A stretch of 62,974 nt of DNA from Candidatus Kaiserbacteria bacterium RIFCSPHIGHO2_01_FULL_53_29 (GCA_001781125.1 MFKT01000007.1:1-62974); one strand, 5' to 3'. Positions 3,937 through 43,753 are shown, counted from the first letter of the stretch. A program made the numbers and translations. The notes: generated from the sequence alone by a model not told the origin.

Positions 3937-4425
3937 ATGGACCTGAACACTGTTGCGAACATTTTCAGTCACTGGCCTACGGACTGGATCATTATTGGCG
4001 CACTCGTAGCCTTCATCGCACTTGATGCGCTGCGCTCCGGCTCTGCGCGAGCTGCTTCGCTCGTTCTTGCGCTGCCTGCAACAGTACTCCTCACCAATGC
4101 GCTGCCGCAGGCTGTTGTCGTTGGACCTCTGTCCGCACAATTTACAGCTCCTGCCGCGCAACTCATCATTTTTGCCGCAATTTTTGTGCTGCTCTACATA
4201 GCATGCCATCGCATCATCTTTACTTTCTCCGAGGATGGCGGAGTACTCCAAGCTCTCATCACCGGAGTTAGCGCGACGGTCGTTCTTGTCGTGATATTGC
4301 TGCAGGTACCGGGCCTCCAATCGCTCTGGCACTTCGGCGATCAAGTCCAGCTCGTATTTGGCGAAGCCTACCGCTTTTGGTGGCTCCTCGCTGCCTACGG
4401 GGGACTTGCCTTCGTCCGCAGTTAG
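3937..4425 (+). CDS. Hypothetical integral membrane protein
   Basis: 162 aa with about four hydrophobic helices and no recognisable motif. TATAAT lies 6 nt upstream of the ATG. Confidence 0.5.
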   Translation: MDLNTVANIFSHWPTDWIIIGALVAFIALDALRSGSARAASLVLALPATVLLTNALPQAVVVGPLSAQFTAPAAQLIIFAAIFVLLYIACHRIIFTFSEDGGVLQALITGVSATVVLVVILLQVPGLQSLWHFGDQVQLVFGEAYRFWWLLAAYGGLAFVRS

Positions 4426-4498
4426 TACAATATCTTGTACACACGGAGTGCTTGTGAGAAATTAGATTTGTGGTGTACTTGTGCTAATTCTCTTGTAT

Positions 4499-5392
4499 AT
4501 GCCGCAAGAACTCCTGATTGCCATAATCGCTGGACTCGGTGGAATGTTCGGCTGGGGCTTTGCTGATTTTTTCGCAAAAAAGACCATATCCTCGATAGGT
4601 GATACCTTAAGTCTCGCTTGGGCGGGAGTGTTTGGAACAGTCGTGTTCCTCCTTGCAGCTGCATATCAACTACTCTGGGGGAGTGGGGCGCTTGCGATCC
4701 CTCAAGATCTCGCTGTATGGCTCGGGCTCGCTTTCTTTGGCGCACTGCAGGCGGGCGTATATCTTTTCGCATATAAGGGATTCGGAAAGGGGCAGATATC
4801 GCTGCTAGCACCCGTTTTCGCATCTTTTTCAGGCATCGTTGCCCTCATTTCAATACTATTCCTCGGAGAACCTGTGACCGCGCCGCACATCATGGCACTT
4901 GTAGTCATCTTCGGCGGCGTCATGCTCATGAGTATTGATCTCAACGCCTTCCGTGGTCGCGTCGACCTTGTCCATGTTCCCGGTCTCAAAGAAGTGCTTA
5001 TCGCGACCCTACTTGCGGCCCTTTGGACCGTGCTCTGGGACCAATTCGTAAGTGGACAGGATTGGCTCGCGTATGCGCTCTACATGTTCGCTTTTATGAC
5101 GATTGCTGTGTTCGTGATGGCCAAAGTGCAGGGGGTGCTACGTGGCATCTCTTCCCGAAACGTCTGGATCTTTGTCGCGCTTATTGGGATAAGTGAGACT
5201 GTTGCGTATCTCGCCATCAGTCTTGGGTACAGCGCAACCTCGTTCACGAGCATCGTGACTCTGATAAGCGGTGCGTTTTCCTTACCGACCATTATCCTGG
5301 CGCGCATTTTTCTCGAGGAGCGGCCGACCAGAGTCCAGACCCTCGGCTCTATGTTCATAATTGCCGGCATTGCCGCACTCTCTCTGCTATAA
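4499..5392 (+). CDS. EamA/DMT-family transporter
   Basis: About 10 hydrophobic helices in two similar halves, the typical EamA pattern. The track start 4481 is GTG; the first ATG is 4499 (MPQELLIAIIAGLGG...). Confidence 0.7.
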   Translation: MPQELLIAIIAGLGGMFGWGFADFFAKKTISSIGDTLSLAWAGVFGTVVFLLAAAYQLLWGSGALAIPQDLAVWLGLAFFGALQAGVYLFAYKGFGKGQISLLAPVFASFSGIVALISILFLGEPVTAPHIMALVVIFGGVMLMSIDLNAFRGRVDLVHVPGLKEVLIATLLAALWTVLWDQFVSGQDWLAYALYMFAFMTIAVFVMAKVQGVLRGISSRNVWIFVALIGISETVAYLAISLGYSATSFTSIVTLISGAFSLPTIILARIFLEERPTRVQTLGSMFIIAGIAALSLL

Positions 5393-5402
5393 TCTTCCGA
5401 AT

Positions 5403-6530
5403 ATGGTAGATATTTTTAGTAAGAAATTCTTGGAAGGTCTCGAATATGAGACACCTTTTTTCGTGTTCTCCAAAAAAGCCCTTCGTGAACGTTACAAAGA
5501 GTTCAAGAAATATTTTCCGGACTCGTCCATCTATTACGCGATGAAAGCAGACGCCGAGAAAGGCGTTCTTGAAACGCTTTTTGAGGTCGGATCGGGTTTT
5601 GAAGCAGCGTCTTTGTATGAGCTGAAACTTCTCAAAGAACTGCACGTGCCGCCAGATAGAATCCTCTATGGCACATCAGTGAAGCCTACGTCCCACATAA
5701 AAGAATTCCACGACTATGGGGTCAACCGTTTTGCGTTCGATTCATTCCCCGAGCTCGAAAAGATAGCCTCTATCGCACCAAAAGCGCGCGTATATGTGCG
5801 TGTGAGCGTGAACGACGCGGGGAGTATTTATCGCTTCTCGGAGAAATTCGGGACTGTACATGAAAATATCGTGCCGCTTCTGGTGAGGGCACGTGAATTA
5901 GGTCTCGAGCACTACGGTATCAGTTTTCACGTCGGTTCACAGGCAAGCAATCCTGAGGCGTGGAAGAACGCCGTGAGTAGTTTGCACCCTGTTCTCAAAC
6001 ACTTGCATGAGCTTGGCCTTAAGATCGAGATTTTAAATATCGGCGGCGGGTATCCCTGCATGTATGCCTCGACCGACGAAGAGATTACGCTGAAAGAGGT
6101 GGCAAAGAGCGTTGCGGCGGAATGCAAGAAACTGCCCTATCAACCGCATCTCGTTCTTGAGCCGGGGCGTGCGATGGTAGCTGATTCCGCTGTTCTCGTT
6201 ACAAGCGTCATCGCACGAGTCGAGAGAATAGAGCATACGTGGCTTTTCCTCGATGCAGGCGTATACAACGGTCTCTTCGAGAGTCTCGCATATCAGGGCT
6301 CGATTCGGTATCACGTGACTGCTGTGCGGCCCTCATACGATGCCGGGGAGGCAACATTCGCACTCGCAGGACCCACGGGCGATAGCTGGGATGTGGTGAG
6401 CCGTGAGGCGCAACTGCCCCAAGACATCGCAGTCGGCGATAAATTGGTTTTTCACAGCGTTGGAGCCTATAACCTCGTGATGGTAGGCAGGTTCAACGGT
6501 TTCCCCAAGCCAGCGGTCTATTTCGTTTGA
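5403..6530 (+). CDS. PLP-dependent ornithine/lysine/DAP decarboxylase family (group IV) protein
   Basis: PLP-lysine motif YYAMKAD, plus GGGYP and EPGR motifs. The track start 5361 is TTG; ATG 5403 lies 9 nt after TATAAT (5388-5393). The active-site motif reads GPTGD instead of GPTCD. Confidence 0.8.
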   Translation: MVDIFSKKFLEGLEYETPFFVFSKKALRERYKEFKKYFPDSSIYYAMKADAEKGVLETLFEVGSGFEAASLYELKLLKELHVPPDRILYGTSVKPTSHIKEFHDYGVNRFAFDSFPELEKIASIAPKARVYVRVSVNDAGSIYRFSEKFGTVHENIVPLLVRARELGLEHYGISFHVGSQASNPEAWKNAVSSLHPVLKHLHELGLKIEILNIGGGYPCMYASTDEEITLKEVAKSVAAECKKLPYQPHLVLEPGRAMVADSAVLVTSVIARVERIEHTWLFLDAGVYNGLFESLAYQGSIRYHVTAVRPSYDAGEATFALAGPTGDSWDVVSREAQLPQDIAVGDKLVFHSVGAYNLVMVGRFNGFPKPAVYFV

Positions 6531-6569
6531 CACGTCTGTAGGGCGTTCTACACTTACGGTACACCCTCC

Positions 6570-7700
6570 ATGAATGCTATCCAGCGTATCTGCATTACGT
6601 TTTATGCTGTTTGTACGGTACTTTGGGCCGCACTTTTTTTTCAAGACATAACGTCGGGCTTTTACAACTACCTGTATTCGTTCCTCTTCGGATTGATACC
6701 GCTTTTCGGCGGTATAGTCGCAATGCTCCGGTCCGATATTTGGGGAAGGTTCAAAAGTGCTGTCGGCAAAGCTGTTTTTTTCACAGGCCTCGGCGTCTTT
6801 TGTTGGGGCGTGGGCGAGCTGATCTGGTCATACTACAATCTTGTCCTCAATGTCGCTGCACCGTACCCGTCGCTGGCTGACATCGGTTTTGCCCCGAGCA
6901 TCTTCTTTTACAGTCTCGGCGCGTACTACTTGTCCAAGGCTGCCGGCGCTCAATTCGGACTGCGTCACCCCCTTGCAAAAGTATTCGTGGCAGTAACACC
7001 CCTCGTTGTCTTCGCATTCTCATGGTGGATGCTTATTATGGTCGCCCGCGGCGGTGTCTTGGTGCCTGAAGGCGAGCCGCTCCTCAAGGCGATCCTCGAT
7101 ATCATGTACCCCTTGGGCGATTTCGTCGGGCTCGCGATCGCGATAATCGTCTCAGGACTGTCCTTCAGATACTTGGGCGGTCGCTACATGTGGGACATCA
7201 TCGCGATATTCCTCGGACTCTTTTTCATGTACGTTGGCGACACCATCTTTTCCTACACGACTACCGTCGGGACATTCTACAACGGACAATTCGGCGATCT
7301 GATGCTCTCGACCGGTACCTTCCTCCTCACCTATGGAGCTCTGGGCTTTTCTACCGTTAAGGTCGGGTTCGAAAATATACAAGCCTTGGGCGCAGTGACC
7401 ACTGAGCGGATAAAAACGGTCCTCGACAATGTCGTTGCTAAAATCATCAAAGAACAGGAATTAGTGATCGGGCCGCTTGCATGGGCCGAGGCACAAAAAG
7501 TGCAGGGGCTTCATATCGACAAGCAACGTGGCGAGGTAGGGATCTCGAACGGCGATCCCAAAGCTGTCGTTGATCGCCTTGTCGCGCAGTACGAGCGCCT
7601 CTTCGGCAAAGCATCGCAGGAGGTGTGCAAGGAGGCAGCGGCGCCGCTTATCGCGAGTCTTTCGCCCGCTGACGTTCCTTCAAGTTTACGTACTGCATAG
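6570..7700 (+). CDS. Polytopic membrane protein with ~110-aa soluble C-terminal domain (possible sensor partner of the adjacent kinase)
   Basis: 376 aa with about 7-8 hydrophobic helices followed by a soluble tail. The stop lies 16 nt before the histidine kinase ATG. Confidence 0.55.
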   Translation: MNAIQRICITFYAVCTVLWAALFFQDITSGFYNYLYSFLFGLIPLFGGIVAMLRSDIWGRFKSAVGKAVFFTGLGVFCWGVGELIWSYYNLVLNVAAPYPSLADIGFAPSIFFYSLGAYYLSKAAGAQFGLRHPLAKVFVAVTPLVVFAFSWWMLIMVARGGVLVPEGEPLLKAILDIMYPLGDFVGLAIAIIVSGLSFRYLGGRYMWDIIAIFLGLFFMYVGDTIFSYTTTVGTFYNGQFGDLMLSTGTFLLTYGALGFSTVKVGFENIQALGAVTTERIKTVLDNVVAKIIKEQELVIGPLAWAEAQKVQGLHIDKQRGEVGISNGDPKAVVDRLVAQYERLFGKASQEVCKEAAAPLIASLSPADVPSSLRTA

Positions 7701-28969: not shown

Positions 28970-31900
28970 CTACACAACGAAATTCACCAATCGGCCAGGC
29001 ACGACAATGGTGCGGAGAATCTCTTTCCCTTCCAACCGTGCAGCAACCGTCGCACGCGCTGCCTTTTCAATCGCCTCCTTATCTGCGTCGGCCGGTACTT
29101 GTACATCGGCGCGGACCTTACCGTTGATCTGGATCGCGATAGTGATACTTTCATTGACCAATTTCGCCGGATCAAATGTGGGCCATTGTTCGACATGGAT
29201 AGACGTTTTACGACGTTCGCGCCAAAGCTCCTCGGTAAGATGCGGAGCGAAGGGCGACAAGAGTCTTAAGAATTGCTCCCATTGGGTCTTGCCGAGCTTC
29301 TTCTCTTTTTCTACGCCGTTCAAGAAGATCATGAGTTGACTGATCGCGGTATTGAATTTGAGCGCGGCAATATCCTCGCCCACCTTCTTTATGCTCTTAT
29401 GGAGAAGTGGGTCAAGCGCTGCGACACTGGCCGGATTTACGTATTCGCTCGCGCGACACACTCGTTCGAGGAAACGCCGAATACCAACGACACCATCTGG
29501 ATTCCACGGGTAACTTGCGACCTCGTTGTATGGGCCGATAAAGGCAAGGTACATGCGCACAGTGTCGGCACCGAGTTGTTCAACGAGTTTATCCGGGTCG
29601 GCTACATTGCCGTGCGATTTGCTCATCTTTTGTCCGTCGGGACCCAAGATTACGCCGTGGTTCATGCGACGTAGATACGGTTCGGCGTCTTTCACCAATC
29701 CGAGGTCGAAGAGCGCTTTGTGCCAGAAGCGCGAATATAAGAGGTGCATCGTCGTGTGCTCTGCACCTCCGGAATAGAGATCGACCGGCATCCAGTTCGC
29801 CATCTTTTTCGCGTCAGCAAATTTCTTTTTGTTCTTCGGGTCGGTGTAACGCAAGAAATACCACGAAGAATCGACGAATGTATCGAGCGTATCGGTCTCT
29901 CGCTCTGCCTTTCCGCCACATACTGGACATTGGATGTCCAACCACTTACGAGCTTTCGCAAGGGGCGACTTTCCTGTTCCTTCCGGAAGATAGTCTTTTA
30001 CCTCCGGAAGCTTCACCGGCAGATCCTTGTCGGGCACGGCGACTACTCCGCATTTGGGGCAATGGATCATCGGGATGGGCACGCCCCAATATCGCTGGCG
30101 CGAGATTATCCAATCCCGTAAATGATACTGCTTCACGACGCGACCGAACTTTGCCCCAACCTTCGGAATCGCCTCGTCGCTCGTAAGTCCGTTAAATTCT
30201 CCAGAATCAAAGAGCATCCCTTTCCCCGCGTAACACATCTCGCCGTGTACGCGACTCCAAGCGATACGCATATCCTCCCGATTTATAAAAGCGTCGAATT
30301 CTTCCTTGGTGAGCCATGAAATATCGTGCTCTTCTTTCTCTTTGGGAGAAATTTCTGCGCGTGCTTCGTCTTCAAGCTGGAACAAAAGCGGCGTAAAGTG
30401 CACGAACAAATTGCCGTATTTCTGACTGTAGTATTTGGAATGAATAGGTCCCCCGAGTTTCCGGATAAATCTCGCGTGTTCATATCCGGTTTCTTCTGCT
30501 ATCTCGCGTTTCGCCGCTGCAATAGGATCCTCCGCTCCGTCAACCCCGCCCGAGACCCCTCCTCTTACGTCCGTAGGCTTGAAACGTACCGCAAGATATT
30601 TTTCCTCGGACCAGTGTTTTACGATGGCGAGGATCGAAGAGCGATCAATTGCCGGTTCTTTGGTGTGAAAAGCGTCAGGTCCGGCCCCTTGAACGACTAC
30701 GGGCTCCAGCGTTTCCTTGAGCGGAATGTCGTACTTCTTTGCAAAGGCATAGTCGCGCTCGTCGTGCGCATCAGCAAATACCGCTCCAGTACCATAACTC
30801 CCGATAACGAAATCCGCGACCCAGAGCGGCATTTCCGCGCCCGTCGTGGGATTGATTGCTTTGACACCTTTGAGCTCTACTCCCGTTTTTTCTTTATCGT
30901 CAGTTTGCCGTTCGAGTTCTGTCTTCTTTTTTGCTTTTTCGACATATGCTTTCACTTCAGCTTTATTTGTAAGCACATCGTGTTTGTCATCTATCGCGAG
31001 CGCGACCCATGGGTGCTCGGGTGCCAACACCAAATATGTGCCGCCGAATAGTGTGTCGGCGCGTGTGGTGAAAACGGTAATGTGTGGAAGAAGACTCATT
31101 AAAATCATTGGTTCTTCCTTACCGAAGAAATGTTCCTCGCTGGCATTTCCCTCAATCAGAGCAACTCCAAGTTTTTGCGCCACAGTTTTGAGATATGGTA
31201 CGCGGGGAGCGCCTTCTTGGAGATCGCAAAGTACCGCAGAAAAGCGAACGAGCTTTTTGATTCGTTCATAATCAATATCCCAGTTGAAGTGTTTCCAGAA
31301 GGGACGTTTTTTCGCTCCTTGGACCGATGGATTCATTGCGGGAGCAACAAGAACTAGCCCAGCGATAGGCCTGTTGATTTTTTCTAAGACTTTAAGTGCT
31401 ACGGCTCCGCCAAGACTATGCCCAACGATAATAGTATGTTCGTCAATGGTGCAGGTATTTAAGACGTCTGCAACTTGTTTGATTTCTTTTGGGTTCTCAG
31501 GGTTGGGAAGATTTGGTGCCTGTACTTCGAAACCCTTCTCCTCAAGAGCTTTCTTAAGCCAAGGGATAAAAGCGCCGGCGGCAGAATCCTTATACCAACC
31601 ATGCAAAATGAGATAGTTCGGCTTCGGACCGTTCTTTTTCTCAAATTCAAGAGGAAAATTTATCTCCGCTCCTTCGCTCCTCCCTATCCAGTTGCGCTGC
31701 GAATCTTTGATCTCTTTTGGCCAATCGAGGGGCTCGAGGTCGTCGATGAGCCGGTCGGCGTAGTCGGTGATCTTGATGTTCCACTGGAGCATATTCCGCT
31801 GCACCACCTCACTGTCGCAGCGCTCGCATTTGCCGTTCACCACCTGCTCGTTGGCGAGCACCGTCTTATCCTTCGGACACCAATTGACCGCGGTTTCTTT

Positions 31901-32383
31901 GCGGTAAACGAGACCTTTTTTGAAGAGCTGGAGAAAAAGCCACTGCGTCCATTTGTAATAGGCAGGATCACAGGTGACGACTTTGCGCGACCAATCGAAC
32001 GACGTACCCATCGATTCGATCTGCTTCGTCATATAGGCGATATTTTTCTCCGTCCATGTGCGCGGATTTAGTTTGTTTTTGATAGCGGCATTTTCGGCTG
32101 GCAATCCAAATGCATCGAATCCTATCGGGTACATCACATTTTTGCCCTGCATCCGAAGTGTGCGGGCAAGGATATCCGGCACCGCAAATGCATACCAGTG
32201 CCCTACGTGGAGGTTGCCCGAAGGGTACGGGAACTCAACGAGAAGATGGAAATTCTCTTTCTTGCCCTCCTTGGCTTTAGCGGCGGAGGGGCCCTTGGCC
32301 TTGTCTGGGGTTTTGTAGAGGCTGGTCTTTTTCCAGCGCGCCTGCCACTTTCGTTCAATGGCTTTATGATCGTATTTTTTCAT
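28970..32383 (-). CDS. leuS: Leucine--tRNA ligase with two inserted domains (serine alpha/beta-hydrolase and Nudix)
   Basis: HVGH and KMSKS motifs. CP1 editing motifs TTRADT and GTGAVFADAHDERDY. Insert 1 (aa ~245-432): LILHGW...VGHSLGG...LVLVAP. Insert 2 (aa ~575-718): Nudix box GGVDGAEDPIAAAKREIAEETGY. 1137 aa in total. Confidence 0.95.
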   Translation of the reverse strand: MKKYDHKAIERKWQARWKKTSLYKTPDKAKGPSAAKAKEGKKENFHLLVEFPYPSGNLHVGHWYAFAVPDILARTLRMQGKNVMYPIGFDAFGLPAENAAIKNKLNPRTWTEKNIAYMTKQIESMGTSFDWSRKVVTCDPAYYKWTQWLFLQLFKKGLVYRKETAVNWCPKDKTVLANEQVVNGKCERCDSEVVQRNMLQWNIKITDYADRLIDDLEPLDWPKEIKDSQRNWIGRSEGAEINFPLEFEKKNGPKPNYLILHGWYKDSAAGAFIPWLKKALEEKGFEVQAPNLPNPENPKEIKQVADVLNTCTIDEHTIIVGHSLGGAVALKVLEKINRPIAGLVLVAPAMNPSVQGAKKRPFWKHFNWDIDYERIKKLVRFSAVLCDLQEGAPRVPYLKTVAQKLGVALIEGNASEEHFFGKEEPMILMSLLPHITVFTTRADTLFGGTYLVLAPEHPWVALAIDDKHDVLTNKAEVKAYVEKAKKKTELERQTDDKEKTGVELKGVKAINPTTGAEMPLWVADFVIGSYGTGAVFADAHDERDYAFAKKYDIPLKETLEPVVVQGAGPDAFHTKEPAIDRSSILAIVKHWSEEKYLAVRFKPTDVRGGVSGGVDGAEDPIAAAKREIAEETGYEHARFIRKLGGPIHSKYYSQKYGNLFVHFTPLLFQLEDEARAEISPKEKEEHDISWLTKEEFDAFINREDMRIAWSRVHGEMCYAGKGMLFDSGEFNGLTSDEAIPKVGAKFGRVVKQYHLRDWIISRQRYWGVPIPMIHCPKCGVVAVPDKDLPVKLPEVKDYLPEGTGKSPLAKARKWLDIQCPVCGGKAERETDTLDTFVDSSWYFLRYTDPKNKKKFADAKKMANWMPVDLYSGGAEHTTMHLLYSRFWHKALFDLGLVKDAEPYLRRMNHGVILGPDGQKMSKSHGNVADPDKLVEQLGADTVRMYLAFIGPYNEVASYPWNPDGVVGIRRFLERVCRASEYVNPASVAALDPLLHKSIKKVGEDIAALKFNTAISQLMIFLNGVEKEKKLGKTQWEQFLRLLSPFAPHLTEELWRERRKTSIHVEQWPTFDPAKLVNESITIAIQINGKVRADVQVPADADKEAIEKAARATVAARLEGKEILRTIVVPGRLVNFVV

Positions 32384-34655: not shown

Positions 34656-34690
34656 CCGAGCATCCTAGCTGAAAATTGGCATTCAAGCCA

Positions 34691-37600
34691 TCAAATCCCT
34701 TGTGTTCTCGGTAATAACTCCGCAGCAACCCAAGCGGAGATGTAGAGTTGCAGGGCCTGTGCCGGACTCCTCGCCTCCATCGAGGCTGCGCGATCATACA
34801 TATTTTGAATCTGCGTTATGGTCCTGTCCAAGATCCTCTGCTCGAGAGCGTTTTTTGCCCGGCTGTTTTTCGCTTCATTCAATGAGAGTTGCGCGAGCAA
34901 TGCGCTTGATTGAACGATCTCCGATTGCACATCGCGGTAGAGCGCTTCGGTCGCTCCAAGCACGCTGCTTCTCCTTTGCCCTTGTCCTAGCTTATTCACA
35001 ATGTCGCCAAGCGCTTTGATAATTCTGACTTCGTTGATCAGCACCAATTGTCCGCTCGGCCACGAGAGCCGATTGCGATCGAGCCACGCTGTGTCGGCAA
35101 TGACCTTTTCAAGATCCCCTTCTACCGCATCCGTTGCCGTATCAATGTCCTGATTTCCGGTAGTTATACTCTTGAGCTTCGCCAATGCCTCGTCGAGAAG
35201 TCCCTTCACGCTGGTATCGACAATCGCTGTCTCCTGTGTCAGAAGTCCGAGCTGCACATTACCAATTTTGATTGCCGACTTCGCGTCGGTGAACGGATCG
35301 AGCCGAAATCCTATCGTGTGCTCTCCTGGAGTCAGATCTCCTACGGAAATTTCGCTTGCAGTATGAACTCCTGGATCAGTTATTCGCTCATCGATTTTAT
35401 ACGCAACCCTGTCATCAACAAATACGGTCATCATTTCTTCCGATCCCGGAACGGTGAGAAACTCGTAGTCAAAGTGCAGCACGTTTGTCGTATCTGCGGT
35501 GGAAGCGGAGAATTCAAACCACACAGGAGAACCGGGTGTTGCTTGTGCTGTGTGGGAATCTAAAAAGGTTACGGTGCCCGTTTCGCTTTGTCTGGAAATA
35601 TTGCCTTGGATGTTGAAGGCAGGCAGGTAATTGACGGAACTCCCAGTGCGGGTATTCGATGTAAGACATGGGACTTCTATGTCTTTTCTGAACGTACACA
35701 CGTTGAGTGGCTCGATGTTGGGGAACTCAAGCGGTAGACGGTCCTTGCCACCTTCGAGCGACAAGTGGTGGCCATATACTGCCAAAGGCTCGTCTGAACT
35801 CGGGTCTGACGGCCATAAAACACTGGCTTGATACCATATATGCGGCCATGCGTGGACTCGATTTAAATATGGCGTATACCGCACGACGATTTTTCCCAGC
35901 TCAACAATTTGTCGCAGGCCTGTAAAGTTATTCTCCGCGTCCCGAATTTCGTTTCCAATATCAATCTCATTTTGCGGGATTTGAAATCCGTCTCGTTCAG
36001 TTACATCAAAGTTGTATACGTGGGGCAAAAGTACATTTGTGGGTGCAAGGATGGGTCTTCCTCTTGCATCAACATACTGCTCGGCCCACCAATCTGAACG
36101 ATTCGGTATTGGAAGTCCATTTCTCGTGGGCTCTAAGCCGTATCGCAAAGAGATACCATCGGGATAATATGCGTCAAGGAAAGTCAGATGAATCTTCGTT
36201 GCTGGCGTGTTGATTCTAACCATTTCCGCAGCGGATTGGATGACATTTGATCCAGCACTATGACCTATGAAATGAATCGATTCGTACTTGTTTAGTGCCA
36301 ACTTACCGCCCACGACAGTTCCGTGGAGTCCTGCAGTCGCATATGCATCCCAGGGCGGTACAAAAAGCGGTGTCCCGATAAATACAAGATCTTTCAAGCT
36401 TACCCGAGCCGCGTCTCTGCTCCAATCGAATGTACAAACACTCCATTCGCCGGGATTTGGGACGTGCGCATTGATGTAGTTCTGCATCGAAAGCGCCATA
36501 TCCTTGACCCACCCATCCACGTTGTCGTCCCAGCCATGGGTTATAAATACCAAGTGCTTTGCCGGAGAGCATATCACCCCCGGTATTATGTTTTGCTGAG
36601 GTGCCAGATCTACAATCGACGATGCAATCGTGAAGTCCACATTTCCTGATTCGCCGAATTCCGACCAATCCGACGTTGCATTGGACGCATCGATGGCTCG
36701 TGCTCGCCAGTGATAGCTCCCAGGCGTTAGGCCTGCACGGATAATCGTCGCCACTGATTCTGCTTCTACTGAACCCGACGTGAGTATTCCGCCGTCCATC
36801 TCGCCAGTAAACGGTTGGTCAAATTCTCGAAGTTCCACTTGGAATTGCAATTGTCCTTCGTCAAAGTCGTCGAGGATAGCACTGAATGTAATCGTAGTGT
36901 CATTAATATAATGGTCTTCCGGGATACCGTCCTGCCAGGTGGCCGAAGACTGATTGAGTGCAAAAATCGTCGGCAGATGGTCCTCTAATTCTCCGGTCGG
37001 GACAATGCTGAACGACTCATCGCTCTCATCAAATTTCCCAGACAGGCCGCCACCATCGAGGTAGACTACTATCCTATAAACACTATCTCCTCCCAGCTGT
37101 CCGTCCGACAGAAAGCCGAGCGATTGAGGAACAGTAAATACATAGCTGCCGGTGTTGGTAGTATTTGCTATCGATCCCTCGCCAGACCCGAGGTTGGGAT
37201 CGAATCGTGAATCTCTTAAACCGATTTGCACCCCTGTATTCGCGGGAAAATCTGCACCATCCCAGCGAATTTCATAGGTTTTTCCGATTTCCCATACCTC
37301 GCCTCCGTTTGGCGAAAGAACAGTAATGTGTTCTCCGGACGGCGTCGTCGTTGAGGCGTAGAGCGGATTGTCCGTGACGTAAATGTCAGTTCTGGAATTA
37401 TGTTGAGGTGAAGCATCCCATGGTCCAAACGCGACGATTCTTCCGTCTCCGCTCATCGATCCGCCGCCATGACCGGAAAGGCCCGGTGCATTTTGCACAC
37501 GCGCTGTCACACCAGTTATGAGGTCACGCACATATAAATCAGCTCTATCGACAGAAGTATCATCAGGCGTTAAGTTCGAGTCACCGGACCAAAAAAGGAT

Positions 37601-38665
37601 AAATCTTCCATCGTCGCTCATTGAGAATAAAGTTCCACCTGTGGATGATTGTGTGCCGTTCGAAGATACGCTGGCTATCGTTGTGGTTCCCAGCAGTCGA
37701 TCACGAACCAAAACCTGAAAATTGTTTGACGGTTGAGAATCCGTAAAAATGGACGGGAGGGTAGTCATAAAAGCAACATACCGACCGTCAGCACTGATGA
37801 TAGGAAAACCGGTAGAACCCCTATCTTGCGATACAACGAGGGGGACGGTTATCAGCTCAGTCGTCTGCGTGACCCGATCGCGCACATAAATATGGCTCCT
37901 TGCATTATCGGTATGCCAATTCGTAGAACCCGAAACGAACGCGACATACCGCCCATCTGCAGAGATTGAAGGAGTATCGGAGTCCCCATTACCTTGTTCA
38001 CCATTGGGGCCGATACTCACGCGCTCGGTCGTTCCTGTCTGTAGATTGCGAACAAAGACGTCGCTACTAAAACCCGGCGACCCGTTCGTGTCATCGGGCA
38101 CAAGATTCGTTGCGGAAGACGAAAACGCAACAAATCGCCCATCTGCACTTAATGACGGCTGGGACGCACTCCAGTTTGCCTCTGTACCATCCAAAGCCAC
38201 GCTGATTCTCGCCGTCTCTTCGGTTTGCCTGTCGCGGACAAAGATATCGTGAGGAAGGCCTGTATTATCAGTTGGTGCCGATAAGATGCCTTCAAATGCC
38301 ACAAAGCGTCCGTCGTCGCTTATCACTCTGGGACTAGGAGTACCGAAACCGTAGCCTGTACTTCCATTACTCTGCTCGCCATTTGACGAGACATTCACGC
38401 GACTAAAGATTTTACTCGTGCGATCATAGAAAAATAAATCAAATAGATTGTTGGTATCATCGGGAACGAAATTTGATGAGAACGAACTAAATGCTACAAA
38501 TCCTCCATCCCTGTTGAGAATAGGGCCCCAAGAAACCCCGTTACCCTGCGTTGTGAACGATGCGGGGGTCGCTTGCGCCCATACAATCTGCGTCTTGGTA
38601 ACAAAAACACTCACGAAAATTAGAAGGGGGAGAAGTCCATATATACCGTAATTCAATCTCCTCAT
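34691..38665 (-). CDS. 1324-aa secreted multidomain protein: beta-propeller repeats + Ig-like domains + lipase-like alpha/beta-hydrolase + C-terminal beta-sandwich and helical tail
   Basis: Signal peptide. About 7 repeats of S.DGR[FY]VAF....N[LF][VT]PDDTN....D[IV]FVRD (aa ~40-435). ITVLSPNGGEVWEIGKTYEIRWDG Ig-like domain. HLVFITHGW ... HFIGHSAGSNV (GxSxG at aa 801-805). Confidence 0.85.
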   Translation of the reverse strand: MRRLNYGIYGLLPLLIFVSVFVTKTQIVWAQATPASFTTQGNGVSWGPILNRDGGFVAFSSFSSNFVPDDTNNLFDLFFYDRTSKIFSRVNVSSNGEQSNGSTGYGFGTPSPRVISDDGRFVAFEGILSAPTDNTGLPHDIFVRDRQTEETARISVALDGTEANWSASQPSLSADGRFVAFSSSATNLVPDDTNGSPGFSSDVFVRNLQTGTTERVSIGPNGEQGNGDSDTPSISADGRYVAFVSGSTNWHTDNARSHIYVRDRVTQTTELITVPLVVSQDRGSTGFPIISADGRYVAFMTTLPSIFTDSQPSNNFQVLVRDRLLGTTTIASVSSNGTQSSTGGTLFSMSDDGRFILFWSGDSNLTPDDTSVDRADLYVRDLITGVTARVQNAPGLSGHGGGSMSGDGRIVAFGPWDASPQHNSRTDIYVTDNPLYASTTTPSGEHITVLSPNGGEVWEIGKTYEIRWDGADFPANTGVQIGLRDSRFDPNLGSGEGSIANTTNTGSYVFTVPQSLGFLSDGQLGGDSVYRIVVYLDGGGLSGKFDESDESFSIVPTGELEDHLPTIFALNQSSATWQDGIPEDHYINDTTITFSAILDDFDEGQLQFQVELREFDQPFTGEMDGGILTSGSVEAESVATIIRAGLTPGSYHWRARAIDASNATSDWSEFGESGNVDFTIASSIVDLAPQQNIIPGVICSPAKHLVFITHGWDDNVDGWVKDMALSMQNYINAHVPNPGEWSVCTFDWSRDAARVSLKDLVFIGTPLFVPPWDAYATAGLHGTVVGGKLALNKYESIHFIGHSAGSNVIQSAAEMVRINTPATKIHLTFLDAYYPDGISLRYGLEPTRNGLPIPNRSDWWAEQYVDARGRPILAPTNVLLPHVYNFDVTERDGFQIPQNEIDIGNEIRDAENNFTGLRQIVELGKIVVRYTPYLNRVHAWPHIWYQASVLWPSDPSSDEPLAVYGHHLSLEGGKDRLPLEFPNIEPLNVCTFRKDIEVPCLTSNTRTGSSVNYLPAFNIQGNISRQSETGTVTFLDSHTAQATPGSPVWFEFSASTADTTNVLHFDYEFLTVPGSEEMMTVFVDDRVAYKIDERITDPGVHTASEISVGDLTPGEHTIGFRLDPFTDAKSAIKIGNVQLGLLTQETAIVDTSVKGLLDEALAKLKSITTGNQDIDTATDAVEGDLEKVIADTAWLDRNRLSWPSGQLVLINEVRIIKALGDIVNKLGQGQRRSSVLGATEALYRDVQSEIVQSSALLAQLSLNEAKNSRAKNALEQRILDRTITQIQNMYDRAASMEARSPAQALQLYISAWVAAELLPRTQGI

Positions 38666-38996
38666 GCCACCACTGTATAACTAAAAACCCCAGCGCAACA
38701 GAGCACCGCTCGATTACGATCTTGAGTGGTTCCTCAGGGGCATTTTCAGAGATATGGGGCCATACTCGTCTCCCCTTTCTTTGAGACATCCCTTCCGGGC
38801 AAGAATCCGTAATCTATCCCGGTCTTTAACGTCGGAGGAAGCTTTATGTGGAACTGAAATGGTATGCCCGTGCAATTCTCATGTCGAGCCATGCCCGCTC
38901 TGTGCCTATCGAAAGTCCCATTACTGGGCACTATACCAGCATTAGCGAAAATATGGAGAATGTGCTCACGGTTTTCCGACCCTTATTCTGTTGGCA

Positions 38997-39347
38997 TTAC
39001 TCTGTCATTGAGGATATCGCACCGGTCGCCTTATCGACCTCATACCAATCGAATGTTGCCGTGTGACTGTTTGCGCCCTCCGTTACGATCTCAAACACCT
39101 GGACGGCCCATGTGTCACCCTGATCTTCAACATTGAATTGTGCGACCTTACCTGCCGCTCTTAGCGTGCGTATAAACTCCTGCACTTCCGGCAGCGCAAC
39201 CACGCGATCGAGTATCTCTTGCGTTTCGGAGTCCGATGCAAGCATCGATTGCTGCGGTTCAAAGACGCCAAATGCCCAAGCGAGCGACGCAATGGCCACG
39301 AGCGCAGCAAGAATGACCAGCAGTTTTTTGAGCGAAATGTGAGTCAT
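38997..39347 (-). CDS. Small secreted/anchored protein (PepSY-like pattern)
   Basis: ATG 39347 forms an ATGA overlap with the upstream stop. Signal anchor LKKLLVILAALVAIASLAWA, and DTWAVQVFEIV...YEVDKATGAI. Confidence 0.45.
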   Translation of the reverse strand: MTHISLKKLLVILAALVAIASLAWAFGVFEPQQSMLASDSETQEILDRVVALPEVQEFIRTLRAAGKVAQFNVEDQGDTWAVQVFEIVTEGANSHTATFDWYEVDKATGAISSMTE

Positions 39348-39814
39348 GTGCTTCGTTCTTTCAATTGAAGTTGCTGCCACAACAGGAGTGCGACGACGGC
39401 GTTTGCGAGGAGGAGGAGCCCTGCGACGATGGGCGCCGCAACTGTAAGAGTGAGCGAGTATGTGGTAGGCATGAGATTAATCATAGCAGCAATAAAGACA
39501 ATCGCCGCCGCGGAGCTCGCGAGAGTGCCTGCTTTATTCGCAGCGGAGGATGGGAGGACGAAGAACACGGCCGAAAGTGTGACGAGTGCCGCGGCGGTCG
39601 TCGCGAGCAAATGTCCCGCTCGGACGAGCGCCCATCCAGTCTCGTTATTCAGGGGTAGCCACGGCAAAAGAAAGAGAATAAGAACTGCAAGATCAACGCT
39701 GAGAGCAGTGAGCCGCAGGCGCCGAATTTGTTCGCTCTTGTACGAAAAGTAGAATGTCTTCAGCGCCCAGAATGAGATGACGCCCCACACGATCCAAAAA
39801 AGAGCAGTTTCCAT
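39344..39814 (-). CDS. Hypothetical 4-5 TM membrane protein
   Basis: 156 aa, highly hydrophobic. Tightly packed in the operon: starts 3 nt after the upstream stop. Confidence 0.5.
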   Translation of the reverse strand: METALFWIVWGVISFWALKTFYFSYKSEQIRRLRLTALSVDLAVLILFLLPWLPLNNETGWALVRAGHLLATTAAALVTLSAVFFVLPSSAANKAGTLASSAAAIVFIAAMINLMPTTYSLTLTVAAPIVAGLLLLANAVVALLLWQQLQLKERST

Positions 39815-39817
39815 GCG

Positions 39818-40369
39818 CTACTCCTTCCCGACATCAAATGATGCAACGATAGAGGCGAGAATCTCTTCGTACTTCCCGCCCGTTTCATCCTCGGCGCGAA
39901 TCTGATACCGCATGCCGCCAGAGACAAATCCGATCTCTGTAAAAAGAATGGATTGCCCGCCATCGAAGCGCGTCCCGCTCGCCCAGTATAGGGGATCTTC
40001 ACCGGGTATGAGCTTGAAATCGGCGATATCGTAAGAGGGATCGCGTCTCAATGCCTCTCCAATCGCGCCAAATGCATCGGCGACACCTGCGTCGGAATCC
40101 GCTATGACGATGACCCGTGCCGAGCCAAGTTCGCTAGAGAGAGCGATGCCATTTTCCAATTCGGTTTTTATCCACCAGCCGGGATAGTCGATCGAATAGT
40201 TGCCGCTCTCGTAAGAAACGGAATCGTAGACCGGCTCGTATGGCTCTGCAGCTGATGGTGCGCTCTTCCCCGAAAACGCGAAAAGCGCGATAAGGACACA
40301 CGCAAGCAAAGTACCTCCCGCGATCGCGAGATATTTAGGTGTAAGATATTTTTGAACGTCGATTTCCAT
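39818..40369 (-). CDS. Membrane-anchored extracytoplasmic protein (PsbP/DUF1795-like pattern)
   Basis: 183 aa with an N-terminal anchor. YSIDYPGWWIKTE... mixed alpha/beta pattern. Starts 3 nt after the upstream stop. Confidence 0.45.
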   Translation of the reverse strand: MEIDVQKYLTPKYLAIAGGTLLACVLIALFAFSGKSAPSAAEPYEPVYDSVSYESGNYSIDYPGWWIKTELENGIALSSELGSARVIVIADSDAGVADAFGAIGEALRRDPSYDIADFKLIPGEDPLYWASGTRFDGGQSILFTEIGFVSGGMRYQIRAEDETGGKYEEILASIVASFDVGKE

Positions 40370-40372
40370 ATG

Positions 40373-42640
40373 TTATCGAGGGGGTTCCACCGGACAGCGA
40401 GGATCGCTGGCGGGAGCTCTCGCAAGATTTAGCCCTTCGTCGAGCGCCTCCCATGAGAGCCGCGCAAGCACAGCCGGAAGTTCCGATACCGCATTTGGAA
40501 AGCTGCACGGAGAGCCATCTCCAGTGCTGCTCAAGTCGAGGTCAAGCGGCGGCTCAGCGTCGTTCGGGAAAGAGAGCAATGGACACACAAATTCCACATT
40601 CTCGACCGTGTCGCTCGTGAGCTCGTATTCCGGTTCAACTTTCTCCCATTCCGCCTGCCAACTTGCTCCGCCCGCCTTGCACGAGAACGACTCCGTGCCC
40701 TCCCACATGCGCACGCGCACCGGTATCACAATACGGCCGATCATGCGGGTTTTTTTCGTGAAATCCTGGATGTCGCCGATGAGCGTTTGCGCCTTCTCGG
40801 CAGCTCCGCCGATGCTATCAGGCGTATAAGTGCCATACCGTGTCTCTGCGACAGGCTTTAATTTTCCTACGGCTTTATTTGCAAGGTACTTGGTAGCCTC
40901 TTCGACGGCGCCGAAAAGGGCCTTCCCCGCGCTTTTAAGGTCGAGAACTTTACTGATAGCTCCGACAACCGCAAATCCATTCCTGAAACCTCGGAGGTCC
41001 GCGTCGGGGATCGCGACAGCCGGATTCGCCTCTATAGTTGGCAGGCGATCTGCGACTTCGGCGTAGCTGCATGCATATGGTTCTTCGGCACGCACTTCCC
41101 CTGTTTTGCATTGGTCGACATAATCGCCCGCGCATAGCGGCGCCTGGATCGAGGAGGGTACGAGGCCCGCGACTTGTTTTTTGTGAAAATCGCTTACCTT
41201 TTCTCGAAGCTCCTGCTTCTGCGCCTCCTTTTCTGCTGCCGCTTTCTGAGCAAGCATTTCGGCGGCCGCTCTCCGAGCAGAATCTTCGGACGATTGCCGG
41301 CGTGCCTGTGCCTCTTCTTCAAGACTGCGCTGCTGCGACTCCAACCTGCAGCGTGAAGCTTTTGAAAGCGCGTCGGCGTGCGCCGCAATGGCTGCTTCCT
41401 TCTCTTGCTGCGCTTGCGCTACGCGTGTGGCGAGCTGGTCTCGCTCCGCCTTGGCGCGCGGCAGTCCTTCTTCGAGCATCGCGAGCGCTGCCTCGATCTT
41501 TTTCTGCTCTCGCAAGTTTTCTGCGACCGAGAGACCGGAGTCCTTTCTCGTCTGTATCAACGAGACTACTTGTGCAATCTCCTGCTTTGTGAGCGATATG
41601 TCGCTCTCAAGTCTTCGTACACGCAATCCTTGTTTCTGAAACCGATCATCGAGTCGATCAAGTTCACTGACCGTCGCCACGAGCGCGACATCGGCTTCTG
41701 TCGCGTTGATCTGCGCCGCTGCGGCTTCGGAAGCGGAGCACAAGGGTCCATGTGGCACTTCCGTGGGAGCTTGGACGCGAGTCGCAGGTGGAGGTTCAGA
41801 CATAGAATTCACAGTTTCCGGCGCGGCAATCGGTTTTTTACACATCTCCGGTTCAGAAGGGATAGGAGGCGCTGCGGCAGGTTGTGCCGGAGTCAGACAT
41901 GCGTTCCGTTCCTCATCACACTGGGCATAGCACGAGCTTTCCCCCTCGTCCGTACATGGTCCGATAAGGCCGCCATATTCGCACATCTGACCCGCGCTTG
42001 CGTTGCGTGCGCCTTCAAGGCTTCGCGCCGTGGCCGCACACTGACCATGGCAAGCAGCAATGTCCGCTTCAGCCGACCGTTTACATGCCTCGTATGGTAT
42101 GCGGCACTTGCTTTGGAGCTCTTCTTCGCAGGACAGATTTCCAAACGCGACGTTGCCGGTGCATGTGCGATTCCCCTTTGCATCTCGTTTATCTATGACT
42201 TTATATCTGCAATCAATATCTTTTTTGGTGCAGCTTTGAAATGCAGCGTCGTAGCTATCGCCATATGTCGCACGGCATTGCCCCTTGCATGCATTTTCGG
42301 CAGTGTAGATTTCCTGAAATGTTGGAAGGTCATTTTTTTTCGAACGAGGTTCCCCTTTGCACTTTGCACTACAGACATCATATGCTGCGTTACACTTTTG
42401 TCGTTGTTGCATAGAGGGCTCCGCCTCTCTGGCAGACGAGCCATCTCGTCCGCCGTCTGATTCGGTCATTGCACCATTCGACCGGCACGTACCATCGGCA
42501 TGCTTCTCACAATCCTCATATGTCGTGGAGCTTTGCGCGAAAGCGAGTGATGCCAATGCGGTCGCTACGAACACGCCAACTGCGATACACACGGTGCCTG
42601 CTGTCACAACGCTCGCAGGCACGTCGAGGAGCTTTTTCAT
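40373..42640 (-). CDS. Secreted Cys-rich / coiled-coil protein of unknown function
   Basis: Start set at ATG 42640 (MKKLLDVPA...), 7 nt after TACGAT; the track start 42673 is GTG. Signal peptide, a ~220-aa region with ~26 Cys, a Pro-rich linker, a ~180-aa coiled coil and a ~250-aa C-terminal domain. Confidence 0.7.
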   Translation of the reverse strand: MKKLLDVPASVVTAGTVCIAVGVFVATALASLAFAQSSTTYEDCEKHADGTCRSNGAMTESDGGRDGSSAREAEPSMQQRQKCNAAYDVCSAKCKGEPRSKKNDLPTFQEIYTAENACKGQCRATYGDSYDAAFQSCTKKDIDCRYKVIDKRDAKGNRTCTGNVAFGNLSCEEELQSKCRIPYEACKRSAEADIAACHGQCAATARSLEGARNASAGQMCEYGGLIGPCTDEGESSCYAQCDEERNACLTPAQPAAAPPIPSEPEMCKKPIAAPETVNSMSEPPPATRVQAPTEVPHGPLCSASEAAAAQINATEADVALVATVSELDRLDDRFQKQGLRVRRLESDISLTKQEIAQVVSLIQTRKDSGLSVAENLREQKKIEAALAMLEEGLPRAKAERDQLATRVAQAQQEKEAAIAAHADALSKASRCRLESQQRSLEEEAQARRQSSEDSARRAAAEMLAQKAAAEKEAQKQELREKVSDFHKKQVAGLVPSSIQAPLCAGDYVDQCKTGEVRAEEPYACSYAEVADRLPTIEANPAVAIPDADLRGFRNGFAVVGAISKVLDLKSAGKALFGAVEEATKYLANKAVGKLKPVAETRYGTYTPDSIGGAAEKAQTLIGDIQDFTKKTRMIGRIVIPVRVRMWEGTESFSCKAGGASWQAEWEKVEPEYELTSDTVENVEFVCPLLSFPNDAEPPLDLDLSSTGDGSPCSFPNAVSELPAVLARLSWEALDEGLNLARAPASDPRCPVEPPR

Positions 42641-42681
42641 CACAATCATCGTATCATTGACTTGTCTGACCACTGTCGATT

Positions 42682-43296
42682 ATGCACAGATTCGTTTCAA
42701 CATCGCTTCTTTCCCTTCTCGCGGTCAATATCGGCGTCATCGTGTTCGCCGTCAAGGACGAGTGGTCGCCGCCGACGATCCTTGCAACCTACTGGCTCCA
42801 GAGTGTCATCATCGGGATTTTTCAAGCGAAGAAGATGTCGGGCCTGCAGAAATTTCGTACCGACGGACTCAAGATAAACGAGCAGCCTGTCGCTCCGGTC
42901 GCTTCAACTCGAAGGAAAGTTGTCCGTTTTTTCCTTTTTCACTACGGCCTCTTTCATGTCGTCTACCTTTCTTTTCTCTTTACATATGCCGGTGCGCCCG
43001 ACTTTGTTGGGGTCCTTACTGCCGGAGCAGCTTTCTTCGCAAATCATCTTTTCTCATATTATGAGAATCACGAGCGCGATTTGAGACATGTGCCAAATAT
43101 CGGTGGCATGATGTTTTTCCCCTACATTCGCATCATCCCGATGCATCTTTTCGTCGTGCTTGGAGCGATCGTAATACCGACAACCGCCGGTCTCGTTTTC
43201 TTCCTGACACTGAAAACGCTCGCCGACGCCGCGATGCATATGATCGAGCATTACGGCGATACCAACACTTTACGGAGTAGCGGTCGTTTTTACTGA
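42682..43296 (+). CDS. Hypothetical membrane protein
   Basis: 204 aa with 5-6 hydrophobic helices (FFLFHYGLFHVVYLSFLF). Confidence 0.5.
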   Translation: MHRFVSTSLLSLLAVNIGVIVFAVKDEWSPPTILATYWLQSVIIGIFQAKKMSGLQKFRTDGLKINEQPVAPVASTRRKVVRFFLFHYGLFHVVYLSFLFTYAGAPDFVGVLTAGAAFFANHLFSYYENHERDLRHVPNIGGMMFFPYIRIIPMHLFVVLGAIVIPTTAGLVFFLTLKTLADAAMHMIEHYGDTNTLRSSGRFY

Positions 43297-43534
43297 CCGT
43301 CTCACGGTAACGTAGTTCGGCGCGGGGGGTCTAATCGTTAACTCAAAAGGGATGCGCTTCACGCTTTGGCTGTAGAGGGGGTGTCGAGCTGCACACTCGC
43401 CGTACCGATACTCAAAGACATACCGGAATACTAACGGAAATACGCGGGATGCGAAAGAGATTTGCTTGTCGATGGAGTGTTTCCGTGATACTTCTGCGTA
43501 TAGCCGCCCCGAAACAGCGCAGGAGTATCTCGTC

Positions 43535-43696
43535 ATGTATAACGCGGGCAATCAGCAGCCGTCGTCGTCAAAGTACGACGGCGAACCGCCGAAGCCGATG
43601 CCGCTCACCGCACGCGAACGGAGGGAAAGGTGGGCGATCATAGCGTTCGTCACCGCCTTTGTCATCGGCGTTTACGTTCTCGCGTTCGGCTGGTGA
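43535..43696 (+). CDS. Possible small tail-anchored protein
   Basis: 53 aa: MYNAGNQQ...RERRERWAIIAFVTAFVIGVYVLAFGW. AGGAG lies 9 nt upstream. Weak call. Confidence 0.25.
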   Translation: MYNAGNQQPSSSKYDGEPPKPMPLTARERRERWAIIAFVTAFVIGVYVLAFGW

Positions 43697-43753
43697 GCCG
43701 AACGCCCATATGCGCCGTCCCGTCTTCGCGGGACGGCGCACGATCTTTGTAGG

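Follow-up and report, generated by a model that had tools for sequence, protein, structure and literature searches.

The lipases of the pancreatic family (PF00151), which include pancreatic lipase, the pancreatic lipase-related proteins PLRP1 and PLRP2, lipoprotein lipase and the phospholipase A1 (PLA1) of vespid venoms, are built on an alpha/beta-hydrolase fold with a recognizable set of features. The first core strand leads to an HG oxyanion motif, a 'DW' strand and a G-H-S-x-G nucleophile elbow come next, the catalytic acid lies in an x-L-D-x-x-x-P motif right after the following strand, the catalytic His is placed on a helix behind a variable insert at the 'lid' position, and a beta-sandwich follows the catalytic domain. 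In pancreatic lipase the Ser and the Asp (Ser152/Asp176) are 24 residues apart, and in vespid PLA1 the corresponding distance is probably 28; the PLAT/colipase-binding beta-sandwich is present in pancreatic and lipoprotein lipases and is not found in vespid PLA1. A second group of proteins relevant to this work is that of the PD40/TolB-type beta-propellers (PF07676), whose repeats carry the signature S-x-D-G-R-[FY]-V-A-F ... D-[IV]-F-V-R-D. Patescibacteria, or bacteria of the Candidate Phyla Radiation (CPR), generally lack lipid synthesis. How these bacteria acquire their lipids is unsolved, and lysolipids from neighbouring cells are the suspected source (PMC11665869; this review cites Probst et al. 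2020, 10.1101/465690 / PMC7242380). In this work we analyzed a gene, from the ultrasmall groundwater organism Candidatus Kaiserbacteria bacterium RIFCSPHIGHO2_01_FULL_53_29, that encodes a protein of 1324 amino acids (positions 34691-38665, minus strand, in a stretch of 62,974 nucleotides, MFKT01000007.1:1-62974, hereafter the window) in which features of both groups are combined. We consider it fairly probable that the product is a Sec-exported modular serine esterase formed by a lipase-like core, a conserved jelly-roll and an exchangeable head, and that it is encoded by an accessory gene.

The preliminary description of this gene, made from the sequence alone, had proposed a signal peptide, about seven propeller repeats, two immunoglobulin (Ig)/FN3-like modules, a lipase-like alpha/beta-hydrolase, a beta-sandwich-like region and a helical tail, and this order of domains holds. 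The hydrolase extends over residues 690-990 (35696..36598; like every other part of the protein, it is encoded on the minus strand), and is supported by AlphaFold2 (AF2), Foldseek and a family profile. Both motifs previously pointed out in it, HLVFITHGW and HFIGHSAGSNV, are present, and the AF2 model obtained from an alignment of 83 sequences (predicted local distance difference test, pLDDT, 80.9; predicted template modelling score, pTM, 0.85) is an alpha/beta-hydrolase fold in which the HG motif, the FLD motif and the GHSAG elbow each stand at the end of a strand. In alignments of 35, 83 and 115 homologues the invariant or nearly invariant positions are H710-G711, which form the oxyanion motif (36533-36538), W748, H798, H802-S803-A804-G805, T828-F-L-D831, G843, Y864, N885 and H938. 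Among the 83 homologues, the nucleophile S803 (36257-36259) is conserved in all, D831 (36173-36175) and H938 (35852-35854) are each conserved in 82, and in 60 of them the Ser and the Asp lie 28 or 27 residues from each other. Sequence position, conservation and placement in the secondary structure fit a putative Ser803-Asp831-His938 catalytic triad. The triad expected around S803 is compatible with the conservation and the placement of the three residues; the His aligns only weakly to the CNHL motif: in a second, weak segment of the profile alignment, the family sequence sHaWPyefY is paired with cNHLkSfeYY of the lipase-related proteins, the segment in which the catalytic His of pancreatic lipase lies. 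Just before H938, where pancreatic lipases have their lid, there is a variable insert (residues ~897-935, 35861..35977) recognized by its length and by the low confidence of the model, since pLDDT falls below 50 at model residues 216-240, which correspond to residues 905-929. The distance from D887 to H938 is here 51 residues, the longest among the 83 homologues, the family median being 19.

The relationship of this domain with known lipases became visible with family profiles, which are needed because the searches of the PDB with single sequences gave nothing for the whole protein and one chance match (E 0.83) for the isolated domain. The family profile A2 matched the PDB entries 1w52 (E 3e-11), 2ppl (1.8e-10), 1hpl (2.2e-10), 4qnn (3.6e-7) and 6u7m (4.2e-5); grouped by protein, the pancreatic lipase-related proteins were found with E values from 3e-11 to 1e-8, hornet PLA1 with 4e-7 and lipoprotein lipase with 4e-5. 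When the hydrolase model was used as the query in Foldseek, hornet PLA1 (4qnn) was the first match (E 2.2e-6), followed by generic alpha/beta-hydrolases. As judged from the profiles and the model, the domain represents a bacterial offshoot of the pancreatic-lipase/PLA1 lineage, one that has diverged and lies outside the current Pfam models; the earlier designation as lipase-like was right and can be sharpened to a distant relative of these enzymes. The features of PF00151 described above are recognized in it, with the putative acid 27-28 residues past the Ser. In contrast with the known members, it is bacterial, has its own motifs (WAEQYVD, AYNFDVT and HxWPxxWY), is preceded in the family by large exchangeable N-terminal heads and is followed by a C-terminal jelly-roll resembling carbohydrate-binding modules (CBM) instead of the PLAT/colipase-binding domain. 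In an exhaustive HMMER search, 711 representative clusters passed a limit of E<=1e-3 and 154 passed E<=1e-10, the shared core being residues ~700-895, and named genomes place the family in Planctomycetota, Acidobacteriota, Pseudomonadota, Verrucomicrobiota, Nitrospirota and several CPR groups. Six of 35 relatives match PF00151, the best with E 1.6e-5, and L018 scores 19 bits; precomputed PF00151 matches exist for a few family members, and most members are annotated as 'hypothetical protein'. This large bacterial family, which has no Pfam model of its own, ties the animal lipases to bacterial relatives and gives an example of recent head swapping.

The hydrolase is followed by a CBM-like beta-jelly-roll (residues ~1005-1150, 35216..35653). 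The AF2 model of residues 985-1160 reached a pLDDT of 89 and gives a fold to the region that had been described only as beta-sandwich-like. Its best structural matches in Foldseek were CBM6, CBM35 and CBM11, and also CBM36, with E 4e-5, TM-scores of 0.4-0.5 and 8-16% identity. A PLAT identity for this domain was considered and rejected, given that there were no PLAT structures of lipases or lipoxygenases among the 50 matches listed, which were CBM-like instead. For the analysis of architectures, 231 relatives were gathered by a profile scan of genome contigs, a scan with a single-domain query having found none, and 232 family members were examined. The jelly-roll follows the hydrolase in 151 of them; a PD40 propeller precedes the hydrolase in seven, among them the relative P0004 and a Sulfuricaulis metagenome-assembled genome. 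On the basis of these sequences the conserved unit is hydrolase plus jelly-roll, not propeller plus hydrolase, and the fusion of propeller and hydrolase stressed in the preliminary description is not unique: it recurs and is one of many head combinations. What deserves attention is the pancreatic-lipase-like hydrolase and jelly-roll cassette with its exchangeable heads. The other heads include the FGE-sulfatase fold, a DUF5122 propeller, Lcl_C, a C-type lectin, TIG/Big_2 and a NosD-type beta-helix. The FGE-sulfatase-headed form, of ~840 residues, is common in Taylorbacteria, Saccharibacteria and Paceibacterota; it shares with our protein the cassette and the exchangeable head, as seen for instance at the loci L039 and L041, and differs in that the protein studied here begins with a PD40 head, ends in a clade-specific helical tail and is encoded on an island. 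Closer relatives illustrate the exchange directly: P0003 is 73% identical over residues 441-1320 and has ~935 residues of beta-helix where the propeller stands here, and P0004 has a beta-helix plus a propeller, which indicates that heads were exchanged recently within this clade. On a contig of Taylorbacteria (L081), two hydrolase and jelly-roll cassettes (1-1572 and 4042-6579) lie ~2.5 kb apart.

Export of the protein is indicated by its N-terminus. Residues 1-30 (38576..38665) form a Sec-type signal peptide with the n-h-c organization expected, that is MRR, a hydrophobic core of ~20 residues and VWAQA; by the AXA rule, cleavage would occur between VWA and QA. A hydropathy scan of the whole protein gave a single peak, at residues 4-30, and no further hydrophobic or membrane segment. 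The signal peptide that had been proposed is therefore present, and as the sole hydrophobic segment it points to Sec export and to a soluble exported product. The reading frame itself is open from the first in-frame ATG, and only five codons of open frame precede this ATG. Four independent metagenome runs of groundwater and soil, from several studies, yielded contigs that span the gene with no indels, one metagenome contig shows no differences from the window over 34874-39000, and there is a 98%-identical variant of equal length; the frame, for which an interruption in the reads had been named as a concern, is thus intact and not an artefact of assembly. In run X8, a low-depth contig shows clustered substitutions over window positions 36442-36620, with 108 nt (36 codons, residues ~683-718) skipped or replaced. 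This contig probably comes from a diverged variant of the strain; the change touches the strand of the hydrolase that carries the HG motif.

The head of the protein is a PD40-type beta-propeller (residues ~38-436, 37358..38554), defined by its repeat cores and by phmmer matches. Seven D-G-R-[FYI]-[VI]-[ALF]-F cores were located at residues 53, 118, 175, 237, 293, 352 and 407 and thus recur every 55-65 residues, in agreement with the number of repeats first estimated. With this region as the query, phmmer retrieved more than 7000 proteins annotated as PF07676 or, in the JGI nomenclature, as 'Tol biopolymer transport system component', with E values down to 1e-289, and the Pfam PD40 model scored 20.2-20.8 bits, just under its 20.9-bit cut-off. 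Given these annotations, and the designation of the propeller as TolB-like in the preliminary description, it could be asked whether the protein is an envelope component of a Tol-Pal-type system. The PD40 repeats are indeed present, and TIGR02800 gives a partial match (E 5e-6). However, this match reaches only 25.7 bits against a cut-off of 343.15, the Pfam search revealed no TolB N-terminal (TolB_N) domain, and there are seven repeats rather than six. Nor are there tol or pal genes in the vicinity, which is occupied by ychF, a DUF5671 gene, leuS and an unrelated operon. Moreover, nearly all the phmmer matches are confined to residues ~30-440, and propellers of this type form part of hundreds of unrelated extracellular architectures, their partners including dockerin, cadherin, Big, RTX and proteases. 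The propeller is a common extracellular module and not TolB. A role as a TolB component has, in our opinion, a negligible probability, and the failed equivalog score together with the genomic context effectively refutes it; the resemblance to TolB holds for the PD40 repeats, which here form the seven-repeat N-terminal head of a putative esterase.

The main rival to a lipid esterase is an esterase acting on carbohydrates or other polymers, which would remove acetyl or acyl groups from cell wall or exopolysaccharide, or would be of the cutinase/polyesterase type, the jelly-roll and the head serving to bind glycans. The structural matches of the jelly-roll to CBM domains speak for this possibility, as does the fact that 18 of the 35 relatives match only the generic Abhydrolase_1 model; besides, the family carries dockerin, fn3, ChitinaseA_N, CHB_HEX_C, NlpC/P60-like, C-type lectin and NosD beta-helix domains, which are typical of glycan-degrading systems. 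Nevertheless, the CBM matches are weak, jelly-rolls also bind ligands other than glycans, and the specific affinity of the hydrolase, in sequence and in fold, is with the lipid-acting pancreatic lipases and PLA1 and not with the carbohydrate-esterase families, so that we regard a glycan or polymer esterase as rather unlikely. Much less likely still is that the protein is mainly an adhesin, or another surface-binding protein, in which the hydrolase fold is a non-catalytic binding domain. About three quarters of the polypeptide are indeed putative binding or spacer modules (the propeller, the two Ig-like modules, the jelly-roll and the tail), but across many phyla 82-83 of the 83 homologues retain the elbow, the HG oxyanion motif, the Asp and the His, a conservation that points to selection for catalysis. 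Returning to the lipase-like esterase that we prefer, several observations weigh against it in addition to the glycan-associated domains of the family. The best Pfam match of the isolated hydrolase (residues 685-985) is DUF676 at E 0.023, and PF00151, with a gathering threshold of 27 bits, gave no match to the whole protein or to the isolated domain even at E<=10. The TM-scores of the Foldseek matches are low (0.37), a sign of strong divergence of the fold. The protein shows no anchor motif, its retention at the surface being only conjectural, and a search for RNA-seq runs holding the gene found none. Finally, none of the 60 relatives sampled at the genus and order levels has the hydrolase domain, and it is present in seven of 400 genomes sampled from the phylum (~2%), which argues against an essential role in lipid acquisition.

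If the lipase-like core is active, a sequence of events can be proposed. After secretion, the head and the jelly-roll would bind a ligand of a cell envelope or of a particle; the jelly-roll probably holds the enzyme on the surface or on the substrate, and the PD40 propeller together with the two Ig-like spacers, which make up one of the many exchangeable heads, probably sets the docking target. The core would then cleave acyl esters there, whether of lipids, of phospholipids at sn-1 or of galactolipids, and so set free fatty acids and lysolipids. The gene content of the genome is compatible with a dependence on external lipids: PlsY is absent, there is only a partial ketoacyl-synthase match, and one PlsC-type acyltransferase is kept. 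The source genome measures 1.11 Mb and those of its relatives 0.5-1.1 Mb, small sizes that fit a CPR-type bacterium. A more ambitious proposal would be that the hydrolase and the jelly-roll constitute a horizontally mobile module of the phospholipase-A1 type, retargeted by the swapping of propeller, beta-helix, FGE-fold and lectin heads, with which ultrasmall CPR bacteria without fatty-acid synthesis cut lysolipids and fatty acids from the envelope of a host or neighbour, the PlsC-type enzyme re-acylating the lysolipids, and that this module arrived here on a 9-kb island with a four-gene operon; we consider this improbable as a whole. The host-surface binding and lipid scavenging suggested at the outset are still speculative, and as a core trait they are contradicted by the distribution given above; being this rare in its lineage, the gene cannot be a general solution to lipid acquisition. 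It may plausibly serve to act on the lipids of other cells, and as a secreted relative of PLA1 and pancreatic lipase its product is an assayable candidate for lipid acquisition in CPR bacteria, or for attack on the envelope of a host. This significance is tempered by the fact that the gene is accessory and rare in its lineage, and that the propeller-lipase fusion is only one of many combinations.

The accessory nature of the gene is evident from its location. It lies on a strain-specific segment of ~9.1 kb (34656..43753) between ychF and a flavodoxin-like gene; in four genomes of the same genus (G011, G001, G008 and G012) the flavodoxin-like gene is located 37-66 nt from ychF, and here the two genes are 9.1 kb apart. 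The gene is thus an accessory trait of this segment and not a core function of the lineage. In a quick maximum-likelihood tree, with moderate support, this copy groups with P0004, and then with one sequence from Saccharibacteria and one from Doudnabacteria; it falls outside the main clade of FGE-headed CPR sequences, and the phyla are intermixed. The segment also contains a four-gene operon without significant Pfam matches (38997-42673) and a DUF6498 gene (42682-43296, plus strand). The proteins of the operon had no matches at more than 80 loci of the family, so that nothing but co-acquisition on the island ties them to the lipase-like gene. Neither an integrase nor flanking direct repeats were found for the island. 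The same junction varies in sister genomes: in one of them (L092, G014:C9, 2157-3818) it holds a different insert of ~1.6 kb, and in another (L089, G002:C1, 2164-3097) the flavodoxin-like gene is missing. The ychF/flavodoxin junction may be a hotspot of gene gain and loss.

The remaining modules of the protein are less widely shared. Ig-like module 1 (residues 441-556, 36998..37345) gave 22.6 bits with the Kre9_KNH Ig-like model, whose cut-off is 24.6, and among the 232 family members it is common only to this protein and P0003. Module 2, which is Ig/FN3-like (residues 557-684, 36614..36997) and carries the motif ...GLTPGSYHWRARAID..., is supported by its recurrence, given that it directly precedes the hydrolase in nine family members, and by weak Pfam matches of the relatives to Big_13 and Ig_Rha78A_N; its profiles found nothing better than E>0.3 in the PDB. 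The two modules stand where the preliminary description had put them, and the matches that point to an Ig-like nature are all below threshold. The C-terminal tail (residues 1151-1324, 34694..35215) has a composition that fits helices (52% A/E/L/K/Q/R/M and 7% P+G), consistent with the helical tail previously suggested. A search for the tail beyond the gene found homologues only in P0002, P0003, P0004 and P0124, and it is 74% identical to that of P0004, the rest of the two proteins being 43% identical. In the same genome, an intergenic sequence (G000:C4:17995-18189; L087:5996-6190) shares 48% identity with the final ~65 residues of the tail and contains an internal TAG; it seems to be what is left of a second gene with such a tail, since lost.

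Regarding the control region, a TATACA string is present 8 nt ahead of the ATG (38679-38674) and had been proposed as the -10 box of the gene; nevertheless, the promoter scan revealed no two-hexamer site there, and the promoter-like and terminator matches in the region are no commoner than in shuffled sequence; nothing but the string itself speaks for this assignment. A terminator-like hairpin with a T-run (window 38691-38708, minus strand) ends just before the TATACA string; the hairpin might act as a divide between the gene and the operon upstream of it, but such matches occur at background frequency. Outside the island, the window also carries leuS (28970-32383, minus strand), which encodes a leucyl-tRNA synthetase of 1137 residues with an internal alpha/beta-hydrolase (residues 258-376) and a NUDIX domain (residues 608-696).

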